From NCBI GenBank assembly GCA_008632985.1, contig QPGO01000271.1, positions 59,924 to 79,923 of the forward strand: a stretch of 20,000 nt of DNA, written 5' to 3'. The DNA is from Psammoneis japonica (taxonomy: Eukaryota). Below are positions 1-20,000 of this stretch, piece by piece (positions within the stretch are counted from its first letter, which is position 1; every line of letters starts with the position of its first letter). The notes beneath the pieces were generated by a model. It was not told the origin of the DNA and made no database searches. It was given only the letters and a program-made list of their open reading frames with translations. Made by a program: the position numbers and the translations under genes.

Positions 1-1050
1 GGACAAGCTGCGGCACCCAGTCAAAAAGGCAAAGGAGAGAAGCCTGGCAGGTCTGCTGGATGACTTGTCGCTGGCGATGGCAGCTGTGAAACAATCCTTG
101 CCACCAAGTGTTTCCTTGTGCTCCAGTTGGACGTGAAGCAGACGGCTGGGCTCCACTGCAGCTCCAGTGTTTCCCTCTTCTAACTGCACAAGAGCTGTTG
201 GATCTTTGTCATCTTTTACATCAACAAGAGACAGGAGATGCTGCCATGTCTTGCACACACGCAGATCTGGCACCACTTTTTTAATCCAAAACTCCAACGA
301 CAACGCACCAGAGTCTAAAGATTTGTGCTTGTCACAAGTTGAAGTCATGTGGTCCATTGCAGCAGCAACATTGAACCTGCTGAGCATGTTTTGAGCAAAA
401 TTCTTGCTGCACAAATGGAGCTCTCTTTTGGTCTGCTTCAGCACCTTTTTGTCTTCCCCTTCCCAACAAACTTGCACTGGTCCTTTGTCATGCATGTCAT
501 CAGGAAAAGACAACATGCTGAGATCAGTGTGTCATTCATGCCAAGTTGGGGCCAGATCTTTGCCATCTTTGCCACGCTTTTGTTGCGTGGGTGGATCCAA
601 AGCATCCGTGTCATTGAGAAATTGCACGATGCAAAACTTGAGGTGCAGCTCCAAATCATCTGAGCTGCAGCCTGCCAGTGCATGTGCGTGCATGTTTGAG
701 GCAGAATTTGGCATCTCAATGATGTCCAACACCTGCAATGTGGCAGATGGCAAAATGCCTGGAGGGTTGGTCACAGCCATGCAATCTGCAACACATTCAT
801 GCAGTTCTTTTGCATTGCCGTCCATTGGCAAGCCATGCATTTTTAGCCACACCTTTTTAAATGGTGCGGTCCAACTTGCTTGTTTGTCAACAGGCAGAAA
901 CACCACAGGTGGGCCACTGGGTGTTTCAAGCATCAAATTGGCAAAGAATTTGAACAAATGTGAAGATGAGGGAAAATGTGCAATGATGGGCCAAATGGCA
1001 GATTGAAGCAGACCAGATTTGCAAAGTGCAAGCCCTTTGGAAGGACAAGG
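1..1050 (-). pseudogene. Degraded C-terminal part of a DNA-transposase-like protein (CMC/Plavaka-like) with an embedded SAP-like motif
   Basis: ORF 532..1173(-) contains WTAPFKKVWLKMHGLPMDGNAKELHECVADCM, which fits the SAP-like pattern WLKxRGLxxxGxxxELxERV. Reading through the TGA at 532-534 gives PTWHE*HTDLSMLSFPDDMHDKGPVQVCWEGEDKKVLKQTKRELHLCSKNFAQNML, resembling the 'LxxPxxIxxxGPxxxxWEGxxE' C-terminal catalytic region of CMC/Plavaka-type transposases. The frame stays open to position 1. Family call is by recalled motif only. Confidence 0.55.
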
Positions 1051-1139
1051 CAAAACAGCATTTTGCGGAGGACTTGGCGGATGGTGCAGAAGATGCGGGC
1101 AACAAGTGCCCAATGTTCCATGCATGGTCAGTTGCAGGT

Positions 1140-1635
1140 GACAAGCAAAAGCATTGTTCTGGTTGGAGGGCAAAGTGCAACTTCAAACATCACCACCCAA
1201 GTGTGTGCAAGGACATGATGGGACTGAAACCAGGCAAGACTTGTGAAATGCCTCATGAACTGGTTTTGTCCAAGCCAAAGCACATGTCAATCCCAACTTG
1301 TGGTCCCAAGGTTTGCTTTTTACAAGGCAACAACGACACATGTGTTTTTTCTTTGTTGGCCAGTGCACTGCATTGCTCACAAGATGAGTGCGTGACACAT
1401 TGCATCGGTGGTCAAGTTGAGGCTTCTGCAACATCAGCAGCTGATGGTGACTGACGAATGTGATGATGGTCTGACAAAGTTCTGCAACACCATCAAGGTG
1501 GACTGTGCCAGAGATGGCAGCATCACAATGGAAGATTTGCTGTGCAAGAAGCTCACCTCATGTGGGTTGTCAAACAACTGCTGCGCGACTGTGTGCAATG
1601 GTTGGATTTTTGACTCCAGTCATTCACATGCCGCA
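1140..1635 (+). pseudogene. Degraded fragment with papain-like cysteine-peptidase-style motifs (repeat-associated hypothetical protein)
   Basis: FLQGNNDTCVFSLLASALH (1317-1373; Q-x5-C followed by a helix). After a frameshift comes SNNCCATVCNGWIFDS (~1569-1617). The expected catalytic His before 'xxTV' is not present, so the fold call is tentative. Confidence 0.3.
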
Positions 1636-2249
1636 TCAAAAAGGCAGGTCTGCACTGAAAAGGTCTGGAGACATGACAGAATCATCAGCTGCAAAAGTGG
1701 TGACATCATTGTCAGGGACAGCTGCAGAGTGAGAATCTGCATTGTTGGTCGGGGACAAAGGAGAGGGAGCAGTGTGTTTTGTGTGCTGGTGGATCAGTGT
1801 GTCGTGGTGGCTGGCTTCTGTGAAACTGAGAATGCGGTCTTTGCATTGAGGTCAATTTTTGCAAACAACCCAGCAGGCACTGCAGGGAGGGCACTGGAGG
1901 GTCACTGCTCATTTGTGCAGGCACTTGTCAAATGAGATGTGAAGAGCCATTTGGCAGCAGTGAGGGCATGTTCAAGCAAATTGGCTGGACAACTGCCACA
2001 CAAACCACAGGAGAGTGACACAGGTTCCACAGACTAGAATGACAAGTCTGACTGACAACAGCCAATGATGAGTGTGTTGACAAAAGGATGGAGGCAACTC
2101 AGGCCAACACATGAGCACAATGGAGATGATGTGAGAAGGACACGTCATTGGTGATGTGGACACCTGTGACAATGAGGTGACATCATGAGAAACTTGGGAC
2201 AAGAAGAACAATGATGATGGAACACTGCCGAGTGAAAAAATCATGCTGA

Positions 2250-2425: not shown

Positions 2426-2609
2426 TGGCAGGTTGGGTTGTTCTCTCATTTCCTGTGGAGTTGCGCAAGAAAGCACACATCACAGATGATGTTTTCTTTT
2501 GCATTGATGAAAATGTGCAGCTGAATGAAGCATGGGCTGGCCTTGTCTCCTTGCTGCTTGTGCATGCACTGATGCCAGGCAGCAATGAACACCATGCACC
2601 CTTTGGTTG

Positions 2610-2685
2610 AAAACCTGGAAATCCAGAAAAAAGGAAGCCAAGAAATCCGGAAATGCAGAAACCCAGAAATCCAGAAATGCAGAAG
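2610..2685. repeat. Short array of the (C)CGGAAA-type minisatellite
   Basis: aaacctggaaatccagaaaaaaggaagccaagaaatccggaaatgcagaaacccagaaatccagaaatgcagaa; same 8-bp subunit as 2979-3220. Confidence 0.8.
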
Positions 2686-2978
2686 ATGTGTTCCAGCCGT
2701 GTGTGAACCAAATTGTGCACAAAAACAACACATGCACAATTTTTGCATGGTCTCTGACTTGCGATCGATCTTTCTCCACCAAAAGCATGGACTCGTGCAA
2801 ATTTAAATGATTTGCAACACTGACAAGACTCATGTCAGCATTGCAATGTCATTGGTTTTGTGCAATCCATGTTTTTTGTTGCAACAAACAAGTGGTGACA
2901 CAATGGATGATTTTTGGCAAAATTGTTGCCATCATTTTGATGTGAACACAAACAACTTTTCTGCAATGATGTCTGGCA

Positions 2979-3220
2979 CCAGAAATCTGGAAAAAAGGAA
3001 ACCCAGAAGTCCAGAAAAAATGGAGCCCAGAAACCTGGACAGATGGAAAAACAGAAACCCGGAAATCTGGAAAAATGGAAACCCGGAAATCCAGAAAAAC
3101 AGAAACCCGGAAATCCGGAACCCGGAAATGTGGAAACCCGGAAACCCGGAAAAACAGAAACCCAGAAATCTGGAAACTCTGAAACCTGGAAATGTGGAAA
3201 CCCGAAAACCTGGAAAAACA
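2979..3220. repeat. Minisatellite with 8-bp subunit NNCGGAAA in a ~24-bp higher-order unit (CCCGGAAATCCGGAAAAACGGAAA)
   Basis: Consecutive units cccggaaatctggaaaaatggaaa / cccggaaatccagaaaaacagaaa / cccggaaacccggaaaaacagaaa. Variants are mostly CG->TG or CG->CA. Confidence 0.9.
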
Positions 3221-3229
3221 GCAAAGATT

Positions 3230-4237
3230 TTGGTTTCAGCTCAGACCCCACGGCATGTGCAGAACTTTCCAACAATTGCCGTGCATGTCTGCTTGGCAGT
3301 CCATCCCCTTGATCTTGATTCAAACAGAGGTGCAAAGACAAAACACCTCCCTTGGATGCAGATCGTGGCATGCTCAAATCTCAAATCATGCGCTGCCCTG
3401 AATTTGATCATGGGGTGCCCTCAATTGAGAGTGGGCACCCTCAATCAAGGGTGGGCACCCTCAGCCAAGGGTGAGTGCCACAAATTGATGGCAAAAATGT
3501 GAGGAAAACAGGAGCTGAAGCCGCTTTCTTGCAATGAGGTGAGCTTGTTTGGCATGAATGACAGCTGCAATGCTGCAAATTCATTGACAGAAACAGCACA
3601 CTCTTTGTCTCAGCTCAAACTCAACAGGTTGCACAGAACTTTCCAACAATTGCTGCACATGCCGGGTTGGCAGCCCCACCCCTTTTTCTTGATTCAAACA
3701 GATGCAAAGACAAAACACCTCCCTTGTGGACACAGATTTTGGCATGCTCAAATCTCAAATCAAACACTGCCCTCAATTTGATCATGGGGTGCCCTCAATG
3801 AAGGGTGGGCACCCTCAATCAAGGGTGAGTGCCCTCAACTGAGTGTGAACACCCCACATTGATGGCAAAAATGTGAGGAGAACAGGAAATGAAGCCACCT
3901 TCTTGTGACGAGGCAGGCTTGTTTGGCATGAATGACAGCTGCAATGCCGCGACGTCAATCACAAAAACCAACACACTCTGTGTTCAAGCACCTTGCTGTT
4001 GCCAACATTTTGTTGCAGCTCAGACCCCAGACTCCACGGGATGCACAGAAATTTCCAACAATTGCTGTGTGTGTCATGTTGGCAGCCCGTCACCTGAGTC
4101 TTGACTCAAACAGATGCAAAGACAAAACACCTCCCTCGGGTGCAGATCTTGGCACGCTCAAATCTCAAATCATGCATTGCCCTTAATTTGATCATGGCGT
4201 GCCCTCAATTGAGGGTGGGCACCCTCAATCAAGGGTG
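3230..4237. repeat. Diverged tandem repeat, ~2.5 copies of a ~375-410 bp unit
   Basis: Anchor TTCCAACAATTG at 3267, 3641 and 4053 (spacing 374 and 412). Blocks GCAAAGACAAAACACCTCCC and GCTCAAATCTCAAATCA are in all three copies. TTGATGGCAAAAATGTGAGGA and GCTTGTTTGGCATGAATGACAGCTGCAATGC are in copies 1 and 2. Copy 3 is truncated at the gag remnant. Confidence 0.95.
3412..3479. repeat. 20-bp period array of a 16-bp palindrome (ACCCTCAATTGAGGGT-like); repeated at 3786-3855 and 4196-4237
   Basis: ggggtgccctcaattgagagtgggcaccctcaatcaagggtgggcaccctcagccaagggtgagtgcc. A perfect 14-bp palindrome CCCTCAATTGAGGG lies at 4202-4215. Confidence 0.9.
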
Positions 4238-4826
4238 TTTGCTGAGCTCTTCTCATCCATTGGGATGGTTTGCCCATGCCCACAATGCATCTCTCCCATT
4301 TTTGGTGCTGTCATGTTGCTCAATCCAAGTCCACACTTCCGCATTGACCAAGTGTCCTTTTGACAAACGACAAACAGAATTGAAATGTGCGCTCTTCCAC
4401 ATCATCAACGAATGCAGCCGGGGCTGCCACTGGCCTTGCCACACATCAAAATGGTTTCTTCAGCACCCCAATCTTCTGTGACAAGAGATTCAAGAGTGCA
4501 TCTTCCATCACATCAAAATCTTCCAACTCAAACACTGGCAAAGAACTGACCATTGTGTCCAAGTCCACCATGTCTTTCTCAACGCACTTTCTCTGACAGG
4601 CTTCTTCCAACGCTGCTTGTGCACTGCGCCGACTGGCTCCACTTGCCATTCTTTCTGTGTCTGAGTTGCCTTCCACAACTGCAACATTCTTCAAAGTTTC
4701 AAACCCGTCAAAGTGTGCTGGACAATCTCTTGTGTTGACATTGGCAACGCCACATGTCTGCGGTGCATCATCAACATCCACTGCAAGCCCTGACACCGCC
4801 AAAGCTTGAGCTGGTGCTGCCACCAT
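4238..4826 (-). mobile_element. gag: Ty1/Copia (diatom CoDi-type) gag remnant, N-terminal part
   Basis: TCGVANVNTRD...FDGFETLKNVAVVEGNSDTERMA, then FELEDFDVMEDALLNLLSQKIGVLKKPF*CVARP, and after a frameshift NSVCRLSKGHLVNAEVWTWIEQHDSTKNGRDALWAWANHPNG*EELSKH. This matches the recalled diatom Copia gag pattern (EDAFLNLLAQ..GVLxEPLRYVVRP ... VYRKLKxxL...GWxWIE..D..xNGRxAxxAWxxHYNGxGELSKR). Contains stops, a frameshift and an internal deletion. Confidence 0.8.
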
Positions 4827-5091
4827 GCTTCTTGTGACACAAGGATGACAATGTTTTGTCCATCATGGATGAACAGAGTGACTGCAAGACTCACACAATG
4901 GGCACAGATGGGAGACTGAACGCTCCATGAGCGCCACGGCAACAGGTCCACATGGTCAACTGGTGAATGGGAGGCCACCCCATGCCATTTTGTCTGAATG
5001 AGCACACGCTCTGGGCTTGCCACCCACACTGCTCTGTCCAGCGCTCTATTCCCAGCAGTTGTCTCATCATGAGATCAGATTGATTGATCAC

Positions 5092-6166
5092 TGTTGCTTG
5101 TGTTTGCAGGCGCTGTCAGCACCCGACATCACTCAGGCCAATGGCGCAACTCTGGATGCAACAAAGGTGTCAGGGAATCCCTTGCTTTAGAGCAGCCAAA
5201 GAAAATTGACCAATGTCAAACAGCAGAAACCAGGAACAAGAGCTTGGTCCATGTGGAAGAAGCTGCGTGCCTCCCTCTGCCATCCAGCATTGCACACTTT
5301 GAAAGAACCTCTTGGCAACTGGTCAGTGCCACCATCCCAGATGCGCGTGCAGTCAACTGCTCATTTTTCTCCTTTGGAGGACTGTTTGCACGTGAAGTCT
5401 CCTTCAGGGTGCAAAGCATTCTAAGTCAATGGTGCCAGAACTCACTCCATTGCAGAGTTGGAAACAGCAACTGTCCCATCTGAAGAATCATTCCCAGTGG
5501 AGTCATCCATGACAGAAGACGGTGGATGGACACCAGACTTGCCACGCACTGCTTTGTCTGGCCCACCATCACCCGGCTTCCGGATTCATTCCAAGACATG
5601 CTGCAATCTCTGCCTCAATGGGGGGCAACGTTGTTTGAAGAACTTGATTTTTGCATGTCCCCAGACATGCTGATTTGCTGTTTCTCTTCCTCGACTTTGA
5701 CTGCAGGGAGCGATGGTTCAGTTGAAGTGGGTGCCACTGTTGGATGGACGACGGCTCTTGCAGGAACCCTGTCAGTTGATTGTGCAGGGCCAGTTTTTGG
5801 AAGGCACCCGTTGTCATGCCAAGCAGAAGCATGTGGGATTCTCTCCATCTTCTGATTCATTTGCCGATTTGTGGAATGCTGCAACAGCAAAGCTTTGGTG
5901 TCATGTTTGGAGCAGCTCACTTTCTCCCTTCCAGCTCCAACTCCTGAGGAACAGTCTGACAATGTCAGAGATTTTCATGCACGGCAAAATGGAGCCAACA
6001 CCCTTGCCTCTGACTGGGACATGCCAAGCAAGATGTTGCATTCCCGAATTGCCATGGAAGAATCCCACAAACCTCAGGACTCCCTCATCCTTTCTGCAAG
6101 TCAAATGGGTGAAAGGACACCAAGACAGACATGCCCCACTCCACACACTCCCACTCAACACAAGAG
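5092..6166 (+). mobile_element. Non-LTR retrotransposon (LINE) fragment: post-RT region plus RNase H domain
   Basis: Across frameshifts: CLCLQALSAPDITQANG; QQKPGTRAWSMWKKL...LKEPLGNW; FQDMLQSLPQWG; RNase H motifs GSDGSV..GATVGW, CAGPVFG..PLSCQAEACGILS (SYRAEAYG-like), CNSKALV, TLASDWD and WVKGHQD (6106-6126). Confidence 0.85.
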
Positions 6167-7140
6167 ATGTGACTTGCAATCTCATGGAGCTTTGGTCTGG
6201 GCAACAACTCAGTCAGCACATCTGCTGGATTCGTGCATCTGTCTTCCCAAGCAATGCACACAATTCCTGTGGTCTGCGCTTCATGGGTCTTGTGACACAC
6301 AATTGCACTGTGCTTCTTCTTCAATGCAGCCTCCAGTCTGGTTGAGTTCTTAAAGACAGCTTCATTGTCACAAAAGACATCAGTGGCCCCATCCATGGGG
6401 ACACCCAGCACACAAAGCTTGCAGTGCAAGGCTTCCATCTGCTCCATGGCAGTCTTCATTGCAACAAACTCTGACCCAAAAGCAGATGACTCAACAGTGT
6501 TCTGCCATTTAGAGTGGCACAAAATGGGTGCTTGCTGGATGAAAGTCAGGATCCCAGTGTGGGACCTGCGCGTCACACAACATCTGGCATGGTCAGCATC
6601 AACAAAGCAGACAGCAGCCGCTGCACTGTCCCCACGTGCTTCTGGCATGTTTGGCGGCAATGGTTCAGCCGTGCCAGGGCAATGTTCTTCCCAATCACAC
6701 TTGGTGAAATGGCTCTCATCAAATGCAGGCTCAGTGTTGTCAAACACAAGAGCAGACCTTGAAAGAGCCTTTGAGCAGGCAAAGATGTGAAGCACCTTGT
6801 CCAGGTGCACTGCTTGCAGTGCTGCAAGGTGGGAAGACATGAGTGAGAAGGCAACAAAAATGTCCACTCATCCCAGCTCAACTGCCCAACAGAGCACCCC
6901 AATGAGGCCTTGAAAGTGGTTTGCTGTTCTGGCGTTCAGCTCTGGCGAACCATCCAGCCCCAAGCTCAATGGTGTCAACACGTTTGTTGGAAGTCACCCA
7001 TCTGTTTTCTCAAGCACTCAGTTTCAACGTCAGCAAGGGCTCAGTGGCATGCAAGTCAGAGGACACAGTGGAGCTCCAGTGTGTCTTGCAGATTTCCTGC
7101 TCCACTTTTGCCTGCATTCTTTGAGGGGCCAACAGCTTTT
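6160..7140 (-). mobile_element. pol: Ty1/Copia pol remnant: reverse transcriptase C-terminus plus RNase H
   Basis: LPTNVLTPLS..LDGSPELN..ANHFQGLIGVLCWAVELG*VDI, HLDKVLHIFACSK, FVDADHA..VTRRSHTGIL, SKWQNTVESSAFGSEFVAMK, VFCDNEAV, LKKKHSAIVCH, TNPADVLT. These are canonical Copia RNase H motifs. A CGA->TGA stop lies at ~6868-6870 and there are upstream frameshifts. Confidence 0.95.
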
Positions 7141-8073
7141 TGCATTGGCTCTCCATGGCCAAGTTCACAACAAAGCTGATGCCAAAGATGGCAGCAACAC
7201 AACCAAAGAAATGAAAATGACAAGCATGGGACAACAGCCAATGGAGGACCCAAGCTTCCCATGTGCTCCAGCAGTGCCATTGTCAATGGCATTGCCAAAC
7301 TTCTTGCCGTGGTTCTTGCGGGAGCATGTCATGGCTGCAATCAGCTGAGCAAGCAAAATGCATCAAACATGAGGATTCAAGCAACAAAGGACGAGCTGCA
7401 AAACAAGGAAATGCAACATTGGCAGCAACACCAAAGTGAGCTCAGTTTGATTGTTGAGTTGTTCCAAACTGTTCCCATGACAACAAAAGTGAGATGAGCT
7501 TGAGTCTGAATGAGAGGCAACATGACAAGGCACCAACACACACAGGGCAAAGATTCCAGTTTCTGCACTTGCACAAGTCATTTCAGTCCTTGAAAGTCCA
7601 GCAGAAAGGCAGGCAATGAAAATGCAGAACTGTCAATGCTTCAACATCAAGGGAAATGTCCCGTCTGTGTCAGCATGATTGCACCAGGGTCACTTTCTAA
7701 AATGCATGGCACAAGCACTGTCAGAATCTCCCCACCACCAGCATCATTCTGAACAGGTGCTGAAGTTTGACCCAAACCATGTGCCACTTTGCTCTTTGCT
7801 TTGGCAACGAGTCCATCCAGTTGTCATGAAAAAAATGAATGGAGTGCATGGTGGCCATTGGCAGAAACAGAATTCCACAGGTTGACAAATCTCCTCGAGC
7901 CTTCATCACGTGCTGTTTGCACATCTGGTGGGGCAACAATCTGACATTGCACGCAAACTTGCATGTGACATTCTTGCCCGTCATGTCTGAATTTTTTGCA
8001 CGCCGTGTCAGAAATCTTGCTTGCGGTGCAATTTTTCTTGTCATGTGTTGCAAGAAAATTTGAGTGCAACATC

Positions 8074-8250
8074 CATGCGGACAACGTTGCCAACATTTTC
8101 AAGTGCAACACTTGACCACTTTTCACTGTGCAACAATTTACCTTTGAACTGGTCCCTGACTCACATTGCTTTCAAACCGTTCTTTAAATCCAACAAGCAC
8201 ACGGACAACATTCCTGACATTTTGCAGTGCAACACTTGGGTGCTTTTCAC
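8074..8250. repeat. Two diverged ~53-bp direct repeats, 124 bp apart
   Basis: catgcggacaacgttgccaacattttcaagtgcaacacttgaccacttttcac (8074-8126) versus cacacggacaacattcctgacattttgcagtgcaacacttgggtgcttttcac (8198-8250). Confidence 0.8.
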
Positions 8251-8349
8251 CATGTGAAATGTTTCTTTCCGGTCAATGGCCCGACTCACATTCCATGATG
8301 TTGCAGCTGCCCCAACTGAGTTGATTTCATGGTCAATGCCTTTGCTGTC

Positions 8350-9400
8350 ATTGTTTTCTGCTGCGTGCTGGTGAATGTTGCTGCCATGCCACCCGAGTGC
8401 TCGTTGCGTCCTTGCTTGCTTCTGTGGGTTGTTGTTCGCTCTGCCTCCTCAAGAACCCATTTGTGTTAAAAGCACTGTTGTTGGTTGCTGCTGCTTCTGG
8501 AGTCTCTTCCTCTTTGCTCCCCTGTTCATCATTCCTTCCTGTGGCCTCCTCCTTGCTGTCACTCCAATCTGTTTTCAGAGCTGCCCATCCCCTCATGCTG
8601 CCCTTCTTTTTCTTCTTTCTTTTCTTGCTGTGTTCGCTCTCTGATTTTTTTGTCTGCAGGCACCATGCATTGACTCTGCTGCAATCCGTTCTCTCCTTTG
8701 CCACCACATCGTAGAGTTTGTTGTGCTTGTTGATCCCATCCTGGTTCCATCCTTGATTTTTGCTTTGCGCCTTTCCCCATGAAAGTGCACTTTTGGACCA
8801 TTGGCCATGTCGGTTGTTGTGCCCCTCTGTTTTGTTTGAATTGCTCTTCGATCTCTGCCACTGATGTGGCCGCATTGCAGCAGCTCTCATGCATCAGCCT
8901 GGCAAAAGCTTCCGCACTTGTTGCCAGCCAATTGCTGACACCTTGGCTGGCCACTGTTTTAAAGTGTTCCATTCATGCTGCCAGGGAGCAGCAATTTTCC
9001 AAGAACCAGAAGTGCGTTTTTGAGACGATGCCCTGCCCTTTTCAATGTCTTCAACACTTGGCATTCCATTGCATCTGGCCATCTCTGAGCAAGAGTCAAT
9101 GGATGAGAACACTGCTCCATGTCATCCAACCACAGCCCAAACAGCAACCATCTTCTTTCTAAAAACCTCCTGCCTGTTGTTTCTTCTCCTGTTTGGTCTT
9201 TTCCTCACCTTCTCCTTGTTCTCTTCCCACCAAACTGCACAGTCACTTGCATCCACGTTGAGGTGCTTGCAAACCTTTTTCTGCATTTTGCTCCCAAAAG
9301 CCAACTCGACCTTGTTGTGCATCACGAACTTTGTCTTGGGGGGGCACACAGCAGCCGCAATGCAGTCGGCCATCTGGCCATCCACAAACTTTCTCCTTGC
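8350..9400 (-). pseudogene. Degraded repeat-associated hypothetical protein ('S[D/A]EAF...KYT...GWxxxGIxxxNxL' type), probably a DNA-transposon accessory ORF
   Basis: Colinear pieces in three frames: TKFVMHNKVELAFGSKMQKKVCKHLNV...WWEENKEKVRKRPNRRRNN; VSNWLATSAEAFARLMHESCC; QKCTFMGKGAKQK; QGWNQDGINKHNKLYDVVAKER; then a basic KKRKKKKK stretch and acidic tail. The motif set is recalled from multicopy diatom hypothetical proteins; function unknown. Confidence 0.5.
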
Positions 9401-10999
9401 TGCCTCCAAGCTGATGACCAACCGCAAGCTCCACATTGTGCAATCCTGTCTCTGCCGTGTCATGGGTGCTGACTGCAACAAAGGACACAAGATTGGCACA
9501 AGCTGGCCACCCTGTTTGTGCAATGTCACTGCAGCGCACATGCCTGGTGAATCATTTTGCACCAACATGTTTGCTCATCCACTCCAGTGTGTCTTGTGTC
9601 AACAAAATTCCTCCCTCAGACCAAACCCAGTCCTGGAGTGCGTGCCTGCCAGCTGCCAGCATGCCTGTTTGTCATTCCCAAAAATGCTCCCTCTCTTTGA
9701 ATGCCAAATTTTTCAAATCGCTCATTGTTGAATGTCAGCTGATGAGTTTTACATTCCTTTTGAATGGCAGGTGTTGTTTGCATCCTCACATTGTCCGTTC
9801 ACTGTGTTTTGCATGATCTGCGCAAAGAACAATGGCACTCCCAACTGTTGTTTGCCAGAATTTTCAAATCACCACCCAATTTTATTTTTTGGGCACAATT
9901 TTCACAGATGAAAGGGCTGCAGTCCGAACACTTCTTTTTGCATTTTTGGCTTGCCTGTGGCATCTTGCTTTGCCATCTGGGTCCCCGCACTCTTGGCCAT
10001 CCCCTGTTCATCACCCGCGACAAACAGAGCATCTTTTCGCACAGTTTGCAACTGGCCAGCGCGTTTAAAATTTTCATGTTTTGGTCATCCAGTTCCAGCT
10101 AAAACTTTCCAGGAAACCAGGTTCATCTCTTTGCCCTCAGATGAGTTCCAGGTCCAGGTGGGACCTCACACTGCTGAGCTGTGACATCGACAGATTTTTG
10201 AATCACGTCGCATGTCGCGCACGTGGATTTCTGCGTGATTTTTTTGACATTTTGTGTCATTTTACGGTGCACTTGTTGAGCGATCCGTCCAACAACTTTT
10301 GACATTTTTTGTTACAGCGCGATTCTACAATGTCTTAAGAATCACATGGGGCAGGCGCATTTGCAAAAACATTGAGTGGCAAGAGGCACATTTGCACCAC
10401 AAACTTGGCCGTTTATTTGATGTTGAAGATGAACATGTCCATTGATTGAATTCTTGCACTGCGGAGCTCGCACACAGAATTCTGCGGGCCCAATGTCACA
10501 CGGAGTCCCACCCAGGGCTGGAACGCGTCCTCACTCATCATCCAGTCTTGCTCTCACCCTTCTGTCTTCCTCAATCACACCCGATTCTTCTCTCGCGGTT
10601 TTGCAAGATTCGTGCAGGTGCTCCGTGGTGCAATCCACTGATGTGACCCTCTCTGGATGTGCGCACTCCTGCACAGAATGCCCTCATTCCCAACAGCGCT
10701 TTCCGGCACAATGCAAAGTCTCCGCTCACTGGAGGTGGGCAACGTCCCTCTGCGAAAGGCCAGGGGATGTCTGCGCCGGCATCATGTTTGTCAAGATGAG
10801 CCACGTCCATCACGTTGTCTTCTCTCACAGTCACTGCATCCTCTCTGACAGGCAGCAGAGCACACATGATTTTTGGGAGCCGGCATTCCATGTCTTGTTT
10901 TTTGGCAAGCCACCATGATCACACAAGGATTTTGCATCAAAAGGTCAACTGGCGTCTCCAGTTCAAAGTCCACCAAATCTAGCGTCAAAGTCATCTGAC

Positions 11000-12140
11000 T
11001 TGTTCACACAGCCGCCACCTGTCAAATGGGTGAAGGGCCATCAAGATCGGCGCGCTCCAATGCATGCCCCACCCCTCAACGCCAGAGTCAATGTCCAAGC
11101 GGATCAATTGGCAGGGGCATGCCAAGGACAGCACCCTTGGGACACCACAATGGTGCTGCCCTTTCCGAATTGTCACTCACATTTGAGTCTCCCAGATGGC
11201 ACGTTGACCGCAGGCCACAAACGTCATGTCAGATGCACGGCCACCACCCCACAATTGCTGCAATGCATCATTGAATGCAGCCAGTGGAGTCCAGAGGTGA
11301 CAGAGCTGATTGATTGGGATGCTCATGCCATCCTCATAAAACGTCATTCCAAACAACACGTCGGAACAGTCAATCAAGCCAGCTCACAATCTTCTCCCCA
11401 CCAATGAGATCGTCCGCCGATGCAACTCAGTGAGACCTCACCAGTGTCTTCATTGTGAGCATCCCATGGAAGACAGGGACCACATGCTCTGCTGTCCACA
11501 TGATGAACCATGGCAAAGAAAGTTTCCACAAGGTTTGAGGAGGTGTTGTGACCGAATCGACACCATGCCAACCCTTCGGGACTTCTCATTGCAGTCCATT
11601 GAAGCATGGTTTCACAGTGAGATGGTTTGTCTTAAAGATGTTGATTGCAGATGCAGAGTTCTGTGGCAGGCTCAATCCGATGTGGGGTGGTGGCAAGTGT
11701 TCAGTGGAGGGCATTCCCTTCTGTGGAGTGTCATTCAATCTGGACATCCAAGAGATTCTGGGATCCTTCATCAGCACCAGGAGGAGAACAAACAACCACC
11801 AACCTGGACAGTGCAGACAGGAACGTTTGTCTGGTGGCAATGGCGGGAATTGTGGGAAGAGCACAACAAACACTTCCATGGCCATGATGCAGAAACTGGA
11901 CAATCTTTGCAGAGATGCAAAGTGGAGGCTGAGCTGACAGCTGTGTGCAACAAACATCAGGAACACTTGGCAAAAGACCAAGGAGTTCTGCTTGATTCTG
12001 TGGCAGAACACAAGACCTTTGCTGCTGCATGCATGCAAAATTGGATTTCTGTGGTTGAGCCCAGATTTGAGGAAAGCCTCAAGGAAGCCAAGAGGCTGGC
12101 AACACGCAGCACATGCACCATTGCCAGTCATTTCCGTCGG
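11000..12140 (+). mobile_element. Second LINE fragment: end of RNase H, zinc knuckle and C-terminus
   Basis: VKWVKGHQD...LNARVNVQADQLA; QWSPEVTELIDWDAH; HNLLPT; CLHCEHPMEDRDHMLCC (CX2C...EX3HX3C knuckle, ~11445-11495); QSDVGWWQVFSGG.S..W; WRELWEEHNKHFHG (WxxRNxxxHG-like); ends TIASHFR. Confidence 0.85.
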
Positions 12141-12199
12141 GCGTCTCCTCTGGGAGACGCCGCTTCAGGCTGGTTGCGCACACTTCTGCCACACCTCCA

Positions 12200-12960
12200 A
12201 GTGGAGTTTGCTGGAAGTGTGGGTTGGCCGGTGCCGGTGTTGCTGGGCAAAGGTGCAACAGCACTTAAAACAATTGATTTGGTTTTTTTAGCGTCAAAGT
12301 CACTTTGTCTGTGCATGTGTTGCAACTGATTCTGGTGTTTTGCACCCACCCCTTCAAAAATGGTTGCAAGCTGCACCTGCACAACCTGTTGCTGCCCACA
12401 CATCCCACTGCAACACAACAATTGAATGCCCAAGAGTCAACGCATGTTGTCCAGTTTTTCATGCAAATTGAACATCTGGAATTCTTCCTCAATGTGGTCT
12501 CTTTGCAAATGACACAACAGCCTTGCAATCCAGCATCACCTCATCACAGTGCATCTGGGATTGCCCAAGTTGCATCTCCACATTTCCAACACATTGTCTT
12601 GCTCCACCATTTCTCACAAAACATTGAGCATGTGTGGCCTCAACAGCTTGTTGACAAAATCCATTTTCAATGTCATTCTCCAGCTGAGGTGGGAAAACAC
12701 GCATTCCAGGACTCCCTTTGTCAATGCAACGCATCCAAGGCCACCCAGCGTGTCGCACTTCTTGCAATTTGAACACAACATGTTTGATGTCAGCCCCAAG
12801 CATTTGTTGATGTTGTTTGCTGCTGCAAAGATCGTGGATTGTGATGGGTTTGGCTGCTGTGTGAGCAGTTCTCTGCACAGTCACCAAATCTTGAAATTTC
12901 ACAAGTGGGGCAACAGGCTGTGCATTCTCTCTCTTGGAAATTTTTGGCATCCTCAAATGA
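12200..12960 (-). pseudogene. Possible degraded coding fragment with a Cys-rich, zinc-finger-like segment
   Basis: Protein-like frame in 12489..13076(-), followed in another frame by CVICKETTLRKNSRCSIC...CVAVGC..RLCRC...CNTC. Weak, because Cys is inflated by the mutation bias. Confidence 0.2.
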
Positions 12961-13058
12961 AATGATTGAAGATTGTGTTTTTCAAATGTCTCATGTCGCT
13001 GAAAGAGAACACAAAATTTTGGTGTTCTTTGTAAATGCTGTGGCATGGATTTCCCATG

Positions 13059-13177
13059 TTTGTGACACAACTCCAAACACTGTCACCAAAATGGGTTTCA
13101 CATCTTGCACAATTGCACAGATTTGTGATGCAATTTTTCACACTGCCACCAAAACAGGCAAGACATTTTGCACAATT
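13059..13177. repeat. Two-copy tandem repeat, 63-bp period
   Basis: tttgtgacacaa...acactgtcaccaaaatgggtttcacatcttgcacaatt versus tttgtgatgcaa...acactgccaccaaaacaggcaagacattttgcacaatt. Confidence 0.8.
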
Positions 13178-14199
13178 CAATTTTCATTCCTGCGACAATT
13201 GCAGTGACTTGACATGCAGCCCCATGTGATCCTCCTCACACCAAAGCGCCGTGGTCACAATGCAACACAGAAACTTCACAATTGTGTCATTGTGTGGTGT
13301 TGCCAGGTTGCACCGTCAGCTTGCCGCAACACCCACAATTGCTTTCCATGTCGTTGTTGTGCTCCACCTTCCATGTTGCATCTCGTCTCCCTCCCCAATT
13401 CCAACAGGACTTGATCACAAAAACAACAAAATCTCTGGCAACATGTGCATTTCCAACCCAGCCAGCATGTGAGCAAGAGGACTTTGACATGCAAGAAGGT
13501 CTCTTCTGTTGGATTGTCTCCCACACACATCAACCATTCATTCAGCACTCTCAACATGGATGGATTTCTCAACGCACTTCCTGCTGGCCAAGCTTTGGCA
13601 ATCTGGGCAAGAGCACTTTGTGGCTGTTCAATGGTTTGCAATGACAAACATCTGTCCTCCGCGTTGAGGGAGGTGGCAGTGGAATTGTCAGCACAGAAAG
13701 CCAGATGAAGAGATGCTGATGCCAGGAGAAAATCTTTTGCCCAGAAAAGAAAGCGCCAACACAACACCAGTGTCCGGGAAAATGGTGCATCCACTGATGG
13801 GATTGGCTGTGCTTCTGTTGGTTCCCATGTGGAGGGACTTTTGATTGAATCACAGAAGGAAATTTCAGCAGAGTTTTGCTTGCACTCAAACAGATTTGGA
13901 CAGTCAAAGTCAATCAATTTGTCATTGTTTGGCACTTCAGCCACCAAAGACCTGCAACTGTCCGAGGAAAGAAACATTGCCACTTCCGTTAAAAAAAAAA
14001 AACAGACAACACAAGTGATTGTGAAGCACCTGTTTCCGGTGCCGTCAATGCCATCCAACAATTGCCAGAAGGAGCAGGTGCAGATGACTGTTGCAATGAG
14101 CCACTCTTCACTGACCAAGCAGAGTTGGACCACCACAGTTTTGGATCATGCAATGACTTGACAAAACCAGCCAAAATCCCCAATGCCAAGAACGTTGCT

Positions 14200-14560
14200 G
14201 TTGACAACAACATGTTGGCAGTTGGCATTGTTTTTGGTGATGAGACCGCCGATGTCTCCACCCAGGAATGCAGAGACACAGCACGTTGTCAGGCACTGGT
14301 CAGATCTGGCTTCAATGTCCACACTGTGGACTGCCATGAGACAAACACCCCACATCCAAATCACATGAACGCCGGTGTGCATGTGCACTTGGTCAATCCA
14401 AGAACTGGGCTGCCAAGGAATGCATCTGCAACTCTGTGTCATTGGATGTTGCATCTGTGACAAAATGGCATTTCAACAACAGGGTCTTGTTGGACTCTTT
14501 TTTCAGTCAATCGTTGGCTCGACTCCATCAAAAGCTGTTGCATCAGAGTGCACGATGTTG
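14200..14560 (+). pseudogene. Degraded Rossmann/SAM-methyltransferase-like domain, paralogous to 19300-19800
   Basis: MLAVGI...QECRDTARCQAL..GFNVHTVD...HMNAGV, then after a frameshift CNSVSLDV...KWHFNNR....FFSQSLARL. The motif order is the same as in the 19.3-19.8 kb domain. Confidence 0.45.
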
Positions 14561-14799
14561 CAACATCTGCGCGCATGATAAAAACACATTGCCACATTAT
14601 AAAATTTACTTGTCTGCACACAACGGTTTTTGTCATTCAGGCAATTGTTAATTTCCTGCTGTTCTTCATGTTTGAACACAGATTTTTTTTAATTTTTGTG
14701 CTCTGCCTTTTTCACAACAACTGACGATCTTTAACGACAAGCCAAACATTGCAATTGCATGCAATGAAATTTTCATCATGTGAAGTGTGCACCAATCAT

Positions 14800-15610
14800 T
14801 TAATCAACAACTGTGCTCCAATTTGCCAAGTCGTCTGCATCGTCCTCTTCATTCCACATGTCTTGTCCGCTCTCTTGCAAGAATTTCAAATGTGCCGCTG
14901 CCGTGTTGGATGTTTCCTCGTCACCGTTCCAAAAAAGCCACACTGCATTTCTCTTGCATTTGGGTGAACATCATCAAGAGGAAGAGGTCCCTTGAAATGC
15001 AGAATCGCACCACTGCTCCCCTCTTGACGTTGTGTTGTCGGCTTCTTTTTCTCTTTCTTCATTTTGCCCGTCCTGTTTTTCTCTTCCTTCTTCATCTTGG
15101 CACCGCCTGTTTTCACTGTCACCGGCGTCTTTCCATCCGAATCCTTCTTTTTCATTGATCCCGTTGCTGTCGCCTTCATTGTCTCTTGTTGTTGTTGTTG
15201 TTTTTTTTCTGTTGTGTGTCACTTTGTTTTGGATCCATGATTCTGACTTCTCTCTGTGCTGTCTCCATTTCTGAGTGTTTCTTTGTGATTGTTCGCATGC
15301 ATCACTTGAAGGCACCCACGTGTTCTTCACGCACCTTAACGCGTGTGCAGAAATCCATGTTGTTTTCCAGTGCATGCACCCTTTCTCCTGATGCTGTCAC
15401 TCACAACATTTTCTTCCATCAATTCTGCACTCCGCGCTGCCCTTTCCCGGTGCAATCTCATGTGGGATTTCCCTGGGAGAAGTCACATGCGCACGTCTGG
15501 CAGGTTTTTGTGTTCACAACTCCAAATCCTGCCAGGCACGTGTGTGACTTCTCCCATGCACCACTCTGGTGCATTTCTGCAGAAACCAGATTTTTTGGTG
15601 TTGGAACAGC
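14800..15610 (-). pseudogene. Possible degraded coding fragment with Lys/Glu-rich low-complexity region
   Basis: Protein-like segments in shifting frames: VHALENNMDFCTRVKVREEHVGAFK, MKKKDSDGKTPVTVKTGGAKMKKEEK..., HLKFLQESGQDMWNEEDDADDLANWS. No family recognised. Confidence 0.3.
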
Positions 15611-16698
15611 AACCATGGCGCCACGCAACCTGTCGGTCGCCTCTCTGTCGCAAGACAACAATGGTTCCTGCCTCAAGGAGGCCGCATTTGAATCTCTCTT
15701 TGCCAACAGTTTTGGAGTGATCGATGGCAACAAGTGGAGCCGTGTCAAAGCGATGATCAAGACGTTGAAATCCAAGGTTCAGCTCCACTGCGACTCCACT
15801 TCTGATCCCTCTTCGAATTGGATCATGCTTGCCCATGTGTGGCAAAAGTCAAAGGGCAGACCTCATTTTTTGTGGAGCTGATGGCTGTGAACTGCATTGT
15901 TGCAAAGGAGCTTGGGTGCAAGAGCTTGCTGCACTTTCTTTCCACAAAAAGATCAAGGCACCAAACATCCTCATGCATTGGAGCATCGCCATGCTCCCAA
16001 AGCAGCGGACATGAAAGTTGTCGGCGACAAGGCAAAATCAACAGACATTGCAACCAACATGATGGCAAAGATTTCCATGTTGCACAAGCTTCTCCATGAT
16101 CCCGGGTTGTGCGACCCAAAGGGAGAGCCACTTGTTGAGCACATTGAGCTGAGAAGTTTTGAAGGGAAGGTTTTGCGTTACGCGCAACACCTTCACATTG
16201 GTTTTTTGATTCTTCATGACAAGATTCTGCCGCACGCACCTGAAAGGAATGGTGATTGTGATCATTGGCTTTGCTCCCTGTTCGGCGAATGTGACGAGAC
16301 ATCAACTTGCATCAACTTTTTGGAGAATTTTCTGGCTCTTGGTCACTGTGATGAGATGACCAAAGACGAATGCCCTGTGTCCTTCCCTGAATTCGTAAAG
16401 TCGTTGTTCCGCCAACACAAAAATTCTTGGGAAAAGCCCATGCAACTGGCGATGCTCGATGTCGAGCGAGAACAAATGTGTGCAACACATGTCAATGAGA
16501 CTCTTTTAAGATGTGTGAAAATTGATCGTGTGGTTTCTGCCGCTGACAATTCCGGCAAAAGCAAGGCTGCAAGGGATTGTTTTGAGGCCATGTGGAAAGC
16601 CAGGCTTCGTGACTTTGCCACTCAGTGCAAGAAGAAAGAATTCGGCAATGCAATTCCATCCGTTACGAAAAATGCTTGGAAACAAAAAAATCCAAATG

Positions 16699-16783
16699 GT
16701 GTGAATCCATCACATTGTTTGAATGATTGTTTGTGCTCCTCTTCTTGTCTCCAATTCTTCTGTTCTTCTTGCAACCTCTTTAG
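16699..16783 (+). other. Spliceosomal intron (85 nt, GT...TAG)
   Basis: G|GTGTGA donor, pyrimidine-rich body, CTCTTTAG| acceptor. Removal joins ORF 15897 (phase 1, G) to CC at 16784-16785 (GCC) and continues in the frame of ORF 16723. Confidence 0.8.
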
Positions 16784-18985
16784 CCGCCTCCCTTTGCTCC
16801 TCAAGCCCCAGTCTCAAAAACCCCAAAGATGGCAAACCTTCTGATGTTTCTCAGAACGAATTGCTGATTCTCCAAGATGTGCCCACTCTCAAGGAACAAT
16901 TTGAACATTCCCAAACAAAGTGGTTGACCCTCGGCACAACTTGTCAGTCACCTCCTCCTCTGCCAGACAATTTCACAAAAGAAGAGCTTGTGAAAGTGTT
17001 TCCTGAACCATCTCCATTTGCGATTCCGGGTGAGGTGAAGTCACAACATTCTCACCTTGTCGTCTTTGAGGAAACCCCCATTTCCAGTTCCTTTGAGGGG
17101 AACTGTGTCAAGCACCAGTCACTCCACAGCATCTCCAATTTCTGCTTGGTGAATCACCTCCGCAAGTTCATGCATGGATTTGAAAACGGCGCAGCTCCCA
17201 ACAATCTGATGCAAGAATTGATGGTTGCGATTGCTTGCCCGACCCAGTCAACCTCTCATTTTTCCGACGTGGTCACTCATTTGTGACACACGGACAAGAT
17301 GCATCAGAAATGCTTTTTTGGATTGCGAGTCAGTGTGTCGTTGACACTCCGTGCAGTGTTGGAACATGGCGAGCCGAACAAAAAAGGGATGGACCAGAAT
17401 GCAAGTTGCGCTGTCGGATCTGTTTTGGTTGTTGTGGCCAGAATTACGAAGTCGCAGACGGTGAGTTAGCTGAAGTGGGACCTGCTCACAAGCCTGGTGC
17501 TGTCTTTGGCAGGGACAAGTGGGAGAAGCTTCCAAAGGATGTGCAGGCATGACAGCCTCAATCTTGGACGCCGCGCAACTCTGCGAGGACGAAATTAATC
17601 TTGTTGCTTTGAAAGAAATGCGTTCCTTCCATGACCCGCACCGTGACAGTCTTTTCGCGGCTGAGCTCCGCAAGATGGTTGGAGCCAAGCATGTTAGAAG
17701 GGAAGGCGTGGAAATTCAAGTGAAGTGCATCTCGTCGTCCGGCAAAAAATCCGTCAATTCGAAACCGAGCTGCACATTGACAAAGAGGATTGTGACATGG
17801 ATGGGTGCACCAAGACTGGTGCTCTTTGCTCGTCACTGCGAGACGCTGTTGGTCGCTCTTGGTCGTTGAAGGTTGTCACTGCATCCAAAGGCAATGCTGG
17901 AAACTGTGTCAGTTCGGCACATGGGCATGCCGAGTTCCGATCGCGTGTGCATGGTCATTTCGCAAAACTTGATCTGTCACATGCTGCAGAAATGATGAGA
18001 CCCGTGGCCCTTCGTTCTCTGTCAGGCAAGCCCCACAGAAACATCAAAGATTTTTTCCTTGACCCTCACTCTGTGTGAGTGGAAGATGAAATTAGCAAGC
18101 CAAATCTTCCGTCCGACACAGTTGAGTGTCCCGTCATTGTCATGCCGAGGAAACGTCTTCCGTTTGCCATCGTGGAGGACTTTAATTTCTCACAACCTCG
18201 ATGAGGCTGGTGCACACGATTGCTTTTGTTGCACCATTGTGGCTGGGTGTCAAACCAGATTCTCCCGTTTTTGCCACTTGTTGTGCAACACAGATGCTGT
18301 GAAGCGTCCTTTCGTGGCTGGCGATTGTGTCCTTCATTGCTTCAGAGAAGCCACAAGGCCACTCGGCAGCATTGCAGGGGATCGCAACAACCGATGCATG
18401 CAGAGCCCGGGACTCGATTTCAAGGAGGTTCATGTGGCAGAGTGCTGGACGAAACTCAATGGTTTGATGGACTTGCTTGTTGGCGGACTGGTTGTTGTCA
18501 TGGACTGGATCAATGACAATGTTGGCAAGCCAACGTTTGGCCACAAGGCAATCGAGGACATGTTTAAAACCGTGGTCCAAACATGGGATCATGCAGGTGC
18601 TGATTGTGGAGAGTTCAGATGCATGAACTCTGTGCAGACATTGATGCTGTGTGGCACAGGGATCCATCCTCACCCCGGTGGCCAAGTTGGGAGCGGCAAA
18701 GCAAATGGAAGAAATGAAGGTCCCAGTGGAGGAGCGCGATTTACTCTTGGAACGGACAGAGGGTGATTTTGATTTGGAAGACTGTGGAAAGAATGGCCCA
18801 GAGTCTTTGCTGTATGACCTGAGTGCAGCTCGTGAAAAGATGGGAATCTGCGATGTCTTTTGTTGCGGACAGCATCTGTTGCTCTTGTTCTCTGATGGGC
18901 AATCAATGATCAAGCGGTTTGGAAGGTGTGAATGGGAGCCAGTCCCATTCGTGTCGATTGATGAAGTTCGAGCCGAACTGGAACG

Positions 18986-19070
18986 GCAAAGAGAGGTCTT
19001 TTTCATGGCAATCACATTTGTTTTTTGTCTGATTGTGCTGACATTGTCACATTGATTCTCGTTCTAACAG
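18986..19070 (+). other. Probable spliceosomal intron (85 nt) with donor GCAAAG (likely mutated from GTAAAG)
   Basis: T-rich body, GCTGAC branch-like motif, TTCTAACAG| acceptor at 19070. A donor at 18986 leaves CG + G = CGG and joins ...EVRAELE-R-KKAAGDLLSFAMNK in the frame of ORF 19090. The other candidate donors (18996, 19008) give an immediate stop. Confidence 0.6.
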
Positions 19071-20000
19071 GAAGAAGGCCGCCGGTGATTTGTTGTCATT
19101 CGCAATGAACAAAAGTGACGATTGCGAGGAGGAGTCAATTGACGAGAAAACAAGCAAACTTCCAACTGCTTGCATGGGTGAAGAGGACAAAAGCGAAGAG
19201 CCTGTTGACGATGAGCACAACCAAGTTGCACATTGCTCTGAGGGTGAAGAGGACCACAGCGACTTGGGAGATTGTTTCGCAAGTGACGAAACTGACGGGG
19301 AAACACACAATGTGCTGTGGTTGGGGATGACCCGTCCGCTCAATGCAAGGCAACTGTCTTCTCAAGAATTGTGCTCTGAGAAGGGGGTGGCCTTAGTGTC
19401 GTCCGACCAACACAGGCGAGACGAGGCCGCGCAATGGCATTTGAGGAAACTAACAAAACAATCACAAACGTCGTTCCAACAGTTTCTCTCCAAGATGGCC
19501 ATCCTGATCTGCACTTAAATTGCAATGTGAAAGCAAGAGATTTCGTCAAGAGAGTCAAGCAGCAGTTTGAGAAACTTGTTGATTTCGACAATCATGGGTT
19601 CGACCAAATCATGTTGGACTGCTGCTGGATGCCAGATGGAGAGTGGCGCGATTCTCGTTTTGGGACGACTCAATTTTTCCAGAATCTAATTGATCTTCGG
19701 GCCTTGCTCTCCAAAAACGAAGAAGGGGGGGACACAGTGATTCCCTTTGCTCTTGCAACCTTCTTCCAGGTTGTCAAACAATGGAAGAAATTGTCGGCTG
19801 TGTTCGACATGTGCACAATGGACAATGATGCTGCAAAGAGCCATGCGAGCACATTCTTTGCAAGTGACCTTACAACCCAAGAACAACAAGAACAGTGGTT
19901 GAGAAAGCCTTCTTGCAAGAAAGAGTTGGGAAATCACTGTGAGTGAATGATGGATTGATGCGCGCACCCCATTTTAGAAAACAAAATCTGACCAGCACTT

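Follow-up and report, generated by a model that had tools for sequence, protein, structure and literature searches.

The 20,000-base stretch of DNA analysed here (contig QPGO01000271.1, positions 59,924 to 79,923; hereafter the window) has lost ~95% of its TA dinucleotides, with both strands affected, through a DNA-level, strand-symmetric, and site-by-site conversion of TpA to TpG or CpA that shows a preference for flanking bases and lies atop CpG decay. The window is probably a gene-free pile of dead mobile elements in which a TpA-specific process of A:T-to-G:C mutation has gone nearly to completion. Rather than a categorically new system, it represents a phenomenon first reported in 2026, here in a new and far more extreme form and possibly in a new host, with near-saturation throughout 20 kb or more of transposon debris, relatives amongst diatom elements, and survivors in TTA and TAA contexts being what is new. 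An earlier note on this DNA had proposed a mutator that turns TA into CA or TG in repeats, an interpretation that was largely right in substance at the level of the signature.

Loss of TpA and gain of CpA and TpG

The depletion of TpA in the window is confirmed, with 68 occurrences compared with 1335.9 expected from base composition (observed/expected ratio, O/E, of 0.051). CpA (2180, O/E 1.71) and TpG (2109, O/E 1.73) are in surplus and CpG is scarce (468, O/E 0.40), with the remaining twelve dinucleotides lying at O/E 0.89–1.27, those of ApA, ApT, and TpT being 1.27, 0.89, and 1.24 respectively. The TpA-poor, CpA/TpG-rich, and CpG-poor tract occupies the window from 1 to 20000, with both of its ends lying beyond, and all 20 of the 1-kb segments have a rho(TpA) of 0–0.128 and a rho(CpA+TpG) of 1.49–1.97. 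Scored separately, the Copia fragment (minus strand), two long interspersed nuclear element (LINE) pieces (plus strand), high-copy element, 8-nt array, 374-nt tandem repeat, and unannotated stretches (Table 1) each have a TpA O/E of 0.02–0.07, the sole exception amongst the recognisable parts being a 386-nt very-high-copy element at 0.19. Over all frames of the plus strand there are 37 TAA, 13 TAG, 5 TAT, and 13 TAC trinucleotides, and the scarcity of TAA and TAG makes TGA almost the sole stop codon and long meaningless open reading frames (ORFs) plentiful. Such long spurious frames of TpA-erased DNA will mislead gene finders.

As a yardstick we used metagenomic loci that encode relatives of the Copia family seen here, namely the best 80 of the 452 confirmed, which have a median rho(TpA) of 0.745 (range 0.50–0.98), rho(CpA+TpG) of 1.16, rho(CpG) of 0.915, and a G+C content of 47%, placing the TpA of the window ~15-fold below that of its own Copia family. 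No TpA-erased copy was present amongst these best 80 loci (minimum rho 0.50), one of the two search patterns having contained Tyr and being blind to erased copies. Relative to the Copia-family baseline, the window is deficient in ~927 TpA and ~598 CpG and carries a surplus of ~1394 CpA+TpG, such that the arithmetic nearly balances, and the predicted net rise in G+C of ~1.6 points agrees with the observed 48.3% compared with the 47% of the baseline.

Direction and context of the substitutions

Intact relatives of three unrelated elements in the window provide 32 Tyr positions, 22 of which are now His (CAY) or Cys (TGY), with only one still Tyr. The Copia fragment contains no Tyr in 283 residues, compared with 3.5% in 120 relatives, and its seven conserved Tyr columns are now occupied by Cys (TGY, four), His (CAC, two), and Phe (one). 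The LINE tail also contains no Tyr, compared with 2.8% in 125 relatives, with its seven Tyr-rich columns now Cys (three), His (two), and Val (two), and with Cys found where the column is 89% Tyr. The ORF of the high-copy element, set against the 18 Tyr of its relative P0121, shows His at six, Cys at five, Phe at three, Tyr at one, and other residues at three of these positions.

Conserved-column replacements in the Copia and LINE fragments that are explained by one unambiguous nucleotide step were tallied, with 20/21 inferred A>G or T>C changes lying at TpA (T>C before A in 7/7, and A>G after T in 13/14). In the same tally, C>T lies before G in 6/7 and G>A after C in 12/16, alongside 11 transversions. 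The changes at A and T are A>G or T>C transitions, confined to TpA. Amongst the replaced conserved residues of the Copia fragment, 15/49 fit TpA>CpA/TpG and 17/49 fit CpG>TpG/CpA, in a test that may pick a favourable synonymous ancestor. Conserved Arg residues of this fragment have become Cys (three), His (three), Gln, Trp, and a stop (one each), with Arg making up 3.2% of the fragment compared with 7.5% in relatives. Two dinucleotide-specific processes have thus written this DNA, namely TpA erasure and ordinary CpG decay.

Strand behaviour

Both strands have been hit, yielding TpG and CpA. The window contains 2180 CA and 2109 TG, with His and Cys replacing Tyr 10 and 12 times respectively in the three elements. 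The order of CA and TG along the window gives z = +0.31 in a runs test, compared with z of -5.6 to -20 for five other complementary pairs, which are clustered by strand. This random interleaving suggests that each site was resolved alone, on either strand, with no processive runs. At CA/TG sites, dinucleotide erasure has overwritten the strand signal.

Much of this had been anticipated in the earlier note. Its hand count of ~67 TA, ~5% of expectation, is borne out by the 68 found, its direction of change from TA to CA or TG by the replacement of Tyr with His or Cys at 22/32 positions, its TpA context specificity by 20/21 unambiguous changes, and its strand symmetry by the equal numbers and random interleaving of CpA and TpG. 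When its Copia motifs are compared with a 12-sequence consensus, the changes FAYLK to FACSK, AIAYH to AIVCH, ANYY to ANHF, WYSK to CHSK, and TNLAD to TNPAD stand, but VPMDG, which had been taken as Ile ATA to ATG, does not, the consensus residue being Leu. The share of the CpA/TpG surplus contributed by ordinary CpG decay, about a third, was overlooked.

Double differences of CA versus TG between copies were also considered as proof that TpA sites had been resolved independently, with 7/16 adjacent doubles between tandem units 1 and 2 being CA versus TG, and 3/26 listed events between genomic copies. This argument was dropped, as an ancestral CpG would leave the same pattern.

Flanking bases and surviving TpA

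Surviving TpA dinucleotides have T before or A after in 62/68 cases and lie within TTAA in 23/68, compared with 42.8% and 5.9% respectively for the same contexts amongst 18308 TpA of the related Copia loci. With the window's base composition and CA/TG flanks as nulls, the binomial P values are ~1e-15 (T before or A after) and ~1e-10 (TTAA), and the enrichment of TTA and TAA amongst the survivors is independent of the Copia baseline. Estimated survival, a rough measure that borrows the ancestral context of one Copia family for the whole window, is 39% for TTAA, 21% for TTAG/CTAA, 12% for TTAC/GTAA, 5% for CTAG, 4% for TTAT/ATAA, 2% for CTAC/GTAG, 0.9% for ATAG/CTAT, and 0.6% for ATAC/GTAT, with 0 of ~98 ATAT and 0 of ~64 GTAC remaining. 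In our own check, these figures fit the product of two per-strand terms.

In duplex DNA, the palindrome RTAY ranks as the best site and TTAA as the worst. Once the CpG share is subtracted, the products indicate that TTA has gone almost wholly to TTG rather than TCA, with ATA and GTA going mostly to ACA and GCA. Expressed as adenine editing, the preference would be for 5'-T-A-Y, with T-A-G intermediate and T-A-A far behind, whilst as thymine editing it would be for R-T-A, then C-T-A, with T-T-A far behind. Alternatively, the TTA and TAA sites may be newly made rather than survivors. One retained ancestral Tyr codon (16179) shows that TpA at least to be old.

Read support

Sequencing run X1 contains 65% of the sampled words from bases 5001–15000, and contigs built from its reads match the window with 0 differences at 490–897, 4486–5000, 5218–6270, and 6694–7996 (408, 515, 1053, and 1303 bases respectively) at a depth of ~34. 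An assembly artefact is unlikely because these exact read-built contigs reproduce the window. The earlier note had named raw reads from independent platforms as a check, and the X1 contigs agree with the window letter for letter, this being support at read level rather than from a second, independent platform, with X1 possibly the sample behind the assembly. In total, 8610 contigs aligned to the window with a likeness of ≥80%, and the places at which they differ from it are mostly transitions (1936 places, compared with 643 with transversions).

The pattern is unusual, and the sequence is found in one run only, with its library type unrecorded and its reads possibly the source data, which would speak for an artefact in which TA is misread as CA or TG owing to base modification at TpA or to errors in the library or the assembly. 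This is highly improbable, given the letter-identical k-mer contigs over stretches of 408–1303 bases. Furthermore, CA or TG is fixed at each site and yet differs between paralogous copies (TG versus CA at 2514–2515, 2522–2523, and 11835–11836), a pattern that strand-dependent miscalling of modified bases would not produce, and the CpG decay and transversions in the same DNA are those of ordinary long-term divergence. Nanopore miscalls at a modified base were rejected as the cause on the basis of the exact k-mer contigs.

Comparison with known systems

The view of the earlier note that no such mechanism had been described is out of date, with the same signature reported in Bigelowiella natans by Mettrop et al. 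(bioRxiv 10.64898/2026.01.13.699255, 2026-04-14), who describe integrated viral DNA that is hypermutated from A/T to G/C at TpA only. In the mutation-accumulation lines of that preprint, from which all figures in this paragraph are taken, 231/302 new nuclear point mutations fell in integrated giant-virus and virophage regions, and all but one of these 231 were A>G or T>C, each such change lying at TpA. Hypermutation was seen in 11/15 lines, with rates of ~6e-7 per site per generation, and a rate ~1000-fold above background, active in some lineages only, characterises this type of process. The preprint also reports 324 predicted coding sequences (CDS) with a mean TpA frequency of 0.0018, enriched in DDE-endonuclease, endonuclease-reverse transcriptase (RT), and RT domains, and 124 clusters of at least three 1-kb windows that are TpA-poor and CpA+TpG-rich. 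The agent proposed there, only from the presence of a homologue, is an ADAT2-like DNA adenine deaminase.

The window shares with B. natans the restriction of A/T-to-G/C transitions to TpA, with the strand deciding between TpG and CpA, as well as a long-term trace of TpA loss and CpA+TpG gain, and the TpA frequencies are of the same order (0.0018 in the CDS there and 0.0034 in the window). The targets differ, those in B. natans being a giant-virus insert of 186 kb in single copy (rho TpA 0.45) and a virophage insert of 25 kb, with TpA-poor clusters defined as 3 kb or longer and one scaffold of 4.4 kb singled out, whereas in the window 20 kb or more of transposon debris in many copies stands at 0.05. 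As described in the preprint, B. natans shows the process on two partly depleted viral inserts; the window shows the end state, that of transposon graveyards without Tyr codons, TAA, or TAG, in which G+C has been raised and not lowered. Additionally, the transposons of the window have diatom elements as their named relatives, and no B. natans protein is present amongst the 240 listed Copia relatives, although the proteome of that alga is public. The G+C content of the window (48%) is compatible with that of B. natans (45%) and excludes Amorphochlora (27%). The genome of B. natans is reported to be densely packed with genes, repeats making up 12.9% of it and the median distance between genes being 960 bp (PMC13746701). 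On balance, B. natans seems the less likely source of the window.

The main text of the preprint (10.64898/2026.01.13.699255) presents no flanking-base preference, with 0 mentions of context, flanking, trinucleotide, or TTAA. Outside that preprint, no description of TpA-to-CpA/TpG hypermutation was found for diatoms or elsewhere in a literature search whose coverage excluded subscription journals. As a side observation, an unusual abundance of (AC:GT)n microsatellites is reported for two rhizarians, Lemnamoeba sinaloensis and B. natans (PMC13746701), and it may be speculated that TpA-to-CpA conversion of (TA)n would yield (AC:GT)n repeats.

Repeat-induced point mutation in fungi (RIP) is likewise a dinucleotide-specific transition hypermutation that scatters missense and nonsense changes through foreign or repeated DNA and is visible in dinucleotide indices. 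However, RIP converts CpA to TpA, the opposite direction, and removes G:C to make AT-rich isochores, whereas the process in the window adds G:C. The RIP indices of the window (TpA/ApT of 68/1183 = 0.057, and (CpA+TpG)/(ApC+GpT) of 4289/2293 = 1.87) are the inverse of those of RIP-positive DNA. CpG decay of the kind associated with 5-methylcytosine is present in the window (CpG O/E of 0.17–0.39 in its older parts) and yields the same TpG and CpA products, but it explains only ~600 of the ~1400 extra CpA+TpG (put at about a third) and cannot remove TpA. Deaminases also drive context-dependent hypermutation when retroelement cDNA is edited by APOBEC3 and double-stranded RNA is hyperedited by ADAR, in both cases as a weapon against viruses and mobile elements. 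The product of APOBEC is C>U on one strand, whereas the change in the window is A:T>G:C on both DNA strands, and ADAR acts on RNA, giving one-strand A>G in clusters, whereas the changes in the window are unclustered and found also in non-retroelement DNA.

Proposed mechanism and alternative explanations

In the mechanism that we propose, each TpA was converted to TpG or CpA one site at a time, with the strand hit at random, whilst CpG-to-TpG/CpA decay, as from cytosine methylation, acted on the same DNA. The process would be of the same kind as the TpA-only hypermutation of integrated viral DNA in B. natans, and its target is presumed to be silenced, foreign, or repeated DNA, not the whole genome. 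The chemistry may be deamination of adenine in 5'-TA-3' on either DNA strand by an enzyme resembling tRNA adenosine deaminases of the ADAT2/TadA fold, with inosine read as G. The natural context of tRNA adenosine deaminases is A34 after the invariant U33, and the natural site of TadA is U-A-C, which would fit the T-A-Y preference.

Alternatively, the thymine of TpA may be modified, for example to 5-hydroxymethyluracil or 5-formyluracil by a TET/JBP-type enzyme, and pair with G to give T>C. All of the data fit a targeting of T equally well (R-T-A best, T-T-A worst), TpA being palindromic, and the 5-hydroxymethyluracil of dinoflagellates is enriched at TpA. We consider this chemistry possible but clearly the less probable of the two, with the preprint favouring an ADAT2-like deaminase, but only on the presence of a homologue (10.64898/2026.01.13.699255). 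Far less probable is ADAR-like A-to-I editing of retroelement transcripts that is fixed by reverse transcription. The 5'-U preference of ADAR does match TpA, as discussed in the same preprint, but within the retroelements the coding strand carries 7 T>C compared with 13 A>G, and 10 Tyr to His compared with 12 Tyr to Cys, such that both strands were hit; CA and TG are not clustered by strand; and erasure is no less complete in satellites and unannotated DNA than in the retroelements. Strand symmetry together with this equal erasure of satellites excludes RNA editing fixed by reverse transcription, as well as one-strand editing of cDNA, and we attach next to no probability to the former.

A pressure from TpA to CpA/TpG may instead act on all DNA of the genome, with selection alone keeping TpA in genes. 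All parts of the window are depleted whatever their CpG-decay age, including families with a CpG O/E of 0.65–0.90, no region of normal TpA lies within the 20 kb, and loose ends and inserts from other genomic copies are TpA-poor too, with 2 TpA in ~130 letters of the X1 loose-end consensus rows shown and 0 in the four longest inserts. We nevertheless judge a genome-wide bias unlikely, as in B. natans, the only organism in which it was measured, the process is reported to be confined to certain regions, with the rest of the genome at 6.0% TpA (10.64898/2026.01.13.699255), and no eukaryote with a genome-wide TpA O/E near 0.05 was found in the literature searched, subscription journals again being outside its coverage. 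A 1940-nt contig from X2 (same sample), which matches the window by ~87% at 7792–7920, has 4 TpA in 60 flanking letters, weak evidence in the same direction as X2 may hold other organisms; the contig could be an unmutated relative or come from another organism. A somewhat less likely explanation again is that the high-copy families spread TpA-free, through loss in a master copy followed by amplification or through selection against the target of a nuclease or mutator, leaving a depletion that is largely inherited. The high-copy repeat block (14675–20000) and the 386-nt element (10145–10530) have TpA O/E values of 0.07 and 0.19 with CpG O/E values of 0.65 and 0.90, and 0/8 of the best-supported differences in 14675–20000 restore TA or flip CA/TG. 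At 16723, 16 contigs (summed depth 7600) all differ from the window, such that many copies would share long identical words, an outcome that is hard to reach by random resolution of TpA in each copy, at about one per 16–20 bases; the differences between contigs and window covered here number 40 of 2580. Set against inheritance, the window's copy of the high-copy element has two in-frame stops and has lost 17/18 Tyr, and the Copia and LINE pieces are truncated with invariant Tyr replaced, which indicates copies that are damaged rather than adapted.

Several points weigh against the reading of the window as dead elements run through TpA-specific mutation. The pairwise comparison with P0121, for which direction is assumed, is less clean, with T>C before A in 9/12, A>G after T in 9/15 (18/27 overall), and 42 transversions, and the survival estimates carry over to the whole window a context borrowed from a single family. 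The high-copy block and the 386-nt element are TpA-poor though their CpG is largely intact, and shared high-depth contigs suggest that many copies of these high-copy families carry the same CA/TG states. The high-copy families may have multiplied after TpA loss, or may avoid TpA, which fits poorly with killing after insertion. In these families, the youngest-looking of the window, ~91% of TpA is lost compared with ~29% of CpG, and they may have been TpA-poor before spreading; either TpA erasure outpaces CpG decay by a factor of at least ~7 (ln 0.094 / ln 0.71), or the families multiplied after TpA loss, in which case TpA-free sequence would be an escape state. The targeting of repeats is presumed from a comparison that covers this window, a stretch without a single-copy gene. 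Kinship with the B. natans process is suggested by the shared signature, and the named relatives of the elements are diatoms and not chlorarachniophytes. Since TpA is its own complement, adenine deamination and thymine modification would leave identical sequences, and the read support may not be independent, given the possible origin of the assembly in X1.

Implications

If the host is far from Bigelowiella, TpA-directed DNA editing might be a widespread defence of stramenopile, alveolate, and rhizarian (SAR) protists that mirrors RIP and saturates every class of mobile element, with RTAY as its optimum and TTAA refractory, and with some families spreading TpA-free beyond the reach of the editor. 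We offer this as a tentative proposal. Natural A:T-to-G:C editing of DNA at a fixed dinucleotide would, if true, be the first adenine-directed (or thymine-directed) counterpart of the RIP and APOBEC defences, and natural DNA adenine editors might be drawn from it. With a host other than Bigelowiella, the process would be no one-species oddity. The hierarchy of flanks (RTAY gone, TTAA kept, and TTA converted to TTG only) is a checkable fingerprint, usable for the screening of candidate enzymes.

Content of the window

The lowest summed contig depth per 667-base bin is 187, compared with ~34 for a single exact copy, and with every bin at or above this value the whole window is repeated DNA at ≥80% likeness. 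Its content is best explained as a gene-free pile of dead mobile elements in the nuclear genome of a eukaryote, probably a marine protist, comprising a Copia fragment, two LINE fragments, a high-copy element, and satellites (Table 1), with no recognisable host gene found in the window. A Pfam search of 129 stop-to-stop ORFs of at least 80 aa gave 0 families at E ≤ 0.01, with 41 ORFs at E ≤ 5 giving noise only, Pfam being blind here to a Copia piece outside the span of the RVT_2 model and to other elements that are too altered. Rfam and tRNA scans of the window gave 0 hits, and its first 40 bases have no match in viral or metagenome contig collections.

Table 1. Positions and properties of the elements and repeats recognised in the window.
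Feature	Position	Strand	Evidence and composition
8-nt (GAAACCCG-like) / 24-nt microsatellite array, two blocks (~2586–2693 and 2974–3240) with non-array DNA between	2586..3240	+	1 TpA
Three tandem units, ~374–410 nt each	3230..4240	+	1 TpA
LINE ORF2 fragment, after the RT core to RNase H, frameshifted	5029..6158	+	tblastn; TpA O/E 0.04
Copia pol fragment of RVT_2 type, 5'-truncated, with the final ~287 residues (RNase H part)	6166..7014	-	E 1.6e-85; TpA O/E 0.04, CpG O/E 0.20
Very-high-copy 386-nt element	10145..10530		bin depth ~110000, ~3000 copies; CpG O/E 0.90, TpA O/E 0.19
Second LINE ORF2 piece, RNase H end and C-terminal domain	11003..12326	+	329-aa open frame 11340–12326, no Tyr
High-copy repeat block	14675..20000		summed depth 3700–15800, ~100–450 copies at 34x; CpG O/E 0.65, TpA O/E 0.07
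ORF of the high-copy element	15615..16688	+	53% identity over 366 residues to P0121 (407 aa); two in-frame TGA

The Copia fragment is 57–61% identical to full-length RVT_2 relatives, with the tblastn match confined to the tabulated interval. Named amongst the 240 relatives listed are the diatoms Epithemia, Attheya, and Fragilaria, together with a Gaiellaceae bacterium metagenome bin, the name carried by two entries, and no relative of >67% identity was found in a library of 5.8 billion proteins, despite families of tens to hundreds of copies.

Six LINE-type proteins were aligned to the window by tblastn, with P0243, P0245, P0251, and P0389 spanning 5029–6158, and P0350 and P0300 covering part of it. 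The LINE relatives between them carry Exo_endo_phos, RVT_1, and zf-RVT, with the long relatives mapping to both 5029–6158 and 11003–12326, and the Atlas cluster of one relative has Bacillariophyta as its commonest phylum (phylum given for 2 members). The 329-aa frame of the second piece matches 663 proteins at E ≤ 0.001, the best at 4.2e-42. A 67-base repeat shared by the two pieces (6100–6166 and 11021–11087) is only 72% alike, which suggests two copies rather than one interrupted copy. One X1 contig (depth 204) links 5953 straight to 11003, omitting 5049 bases, from which it follows that elsewhere in the genome the LINE is uninterrupted where the window has the Copia fragment and other inserts.

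P0121 is the single relative of the high-copy element's ORF amongst the 5.8 billion proteins, and has no Pfam family, no PHROG, and no PDB relative. A weak ESM Atlas lead to DUF2828, a family common in viruses, scores 0.88 only, below the level that counts. The 386-nt element has 5 TpA, four of which are in TTA contexts, with no Rfam family and no tRNA-like part, and looks like a young repeat resembling a short interspersed nuclear element (SINE) or miniature inverted-repeat transposable element (MITE), from a family that is already TpA-poor. The 8-nt array adjoins the ~374-nt tandem units, with these non-coding satellites erased as fully as the coding remnants.

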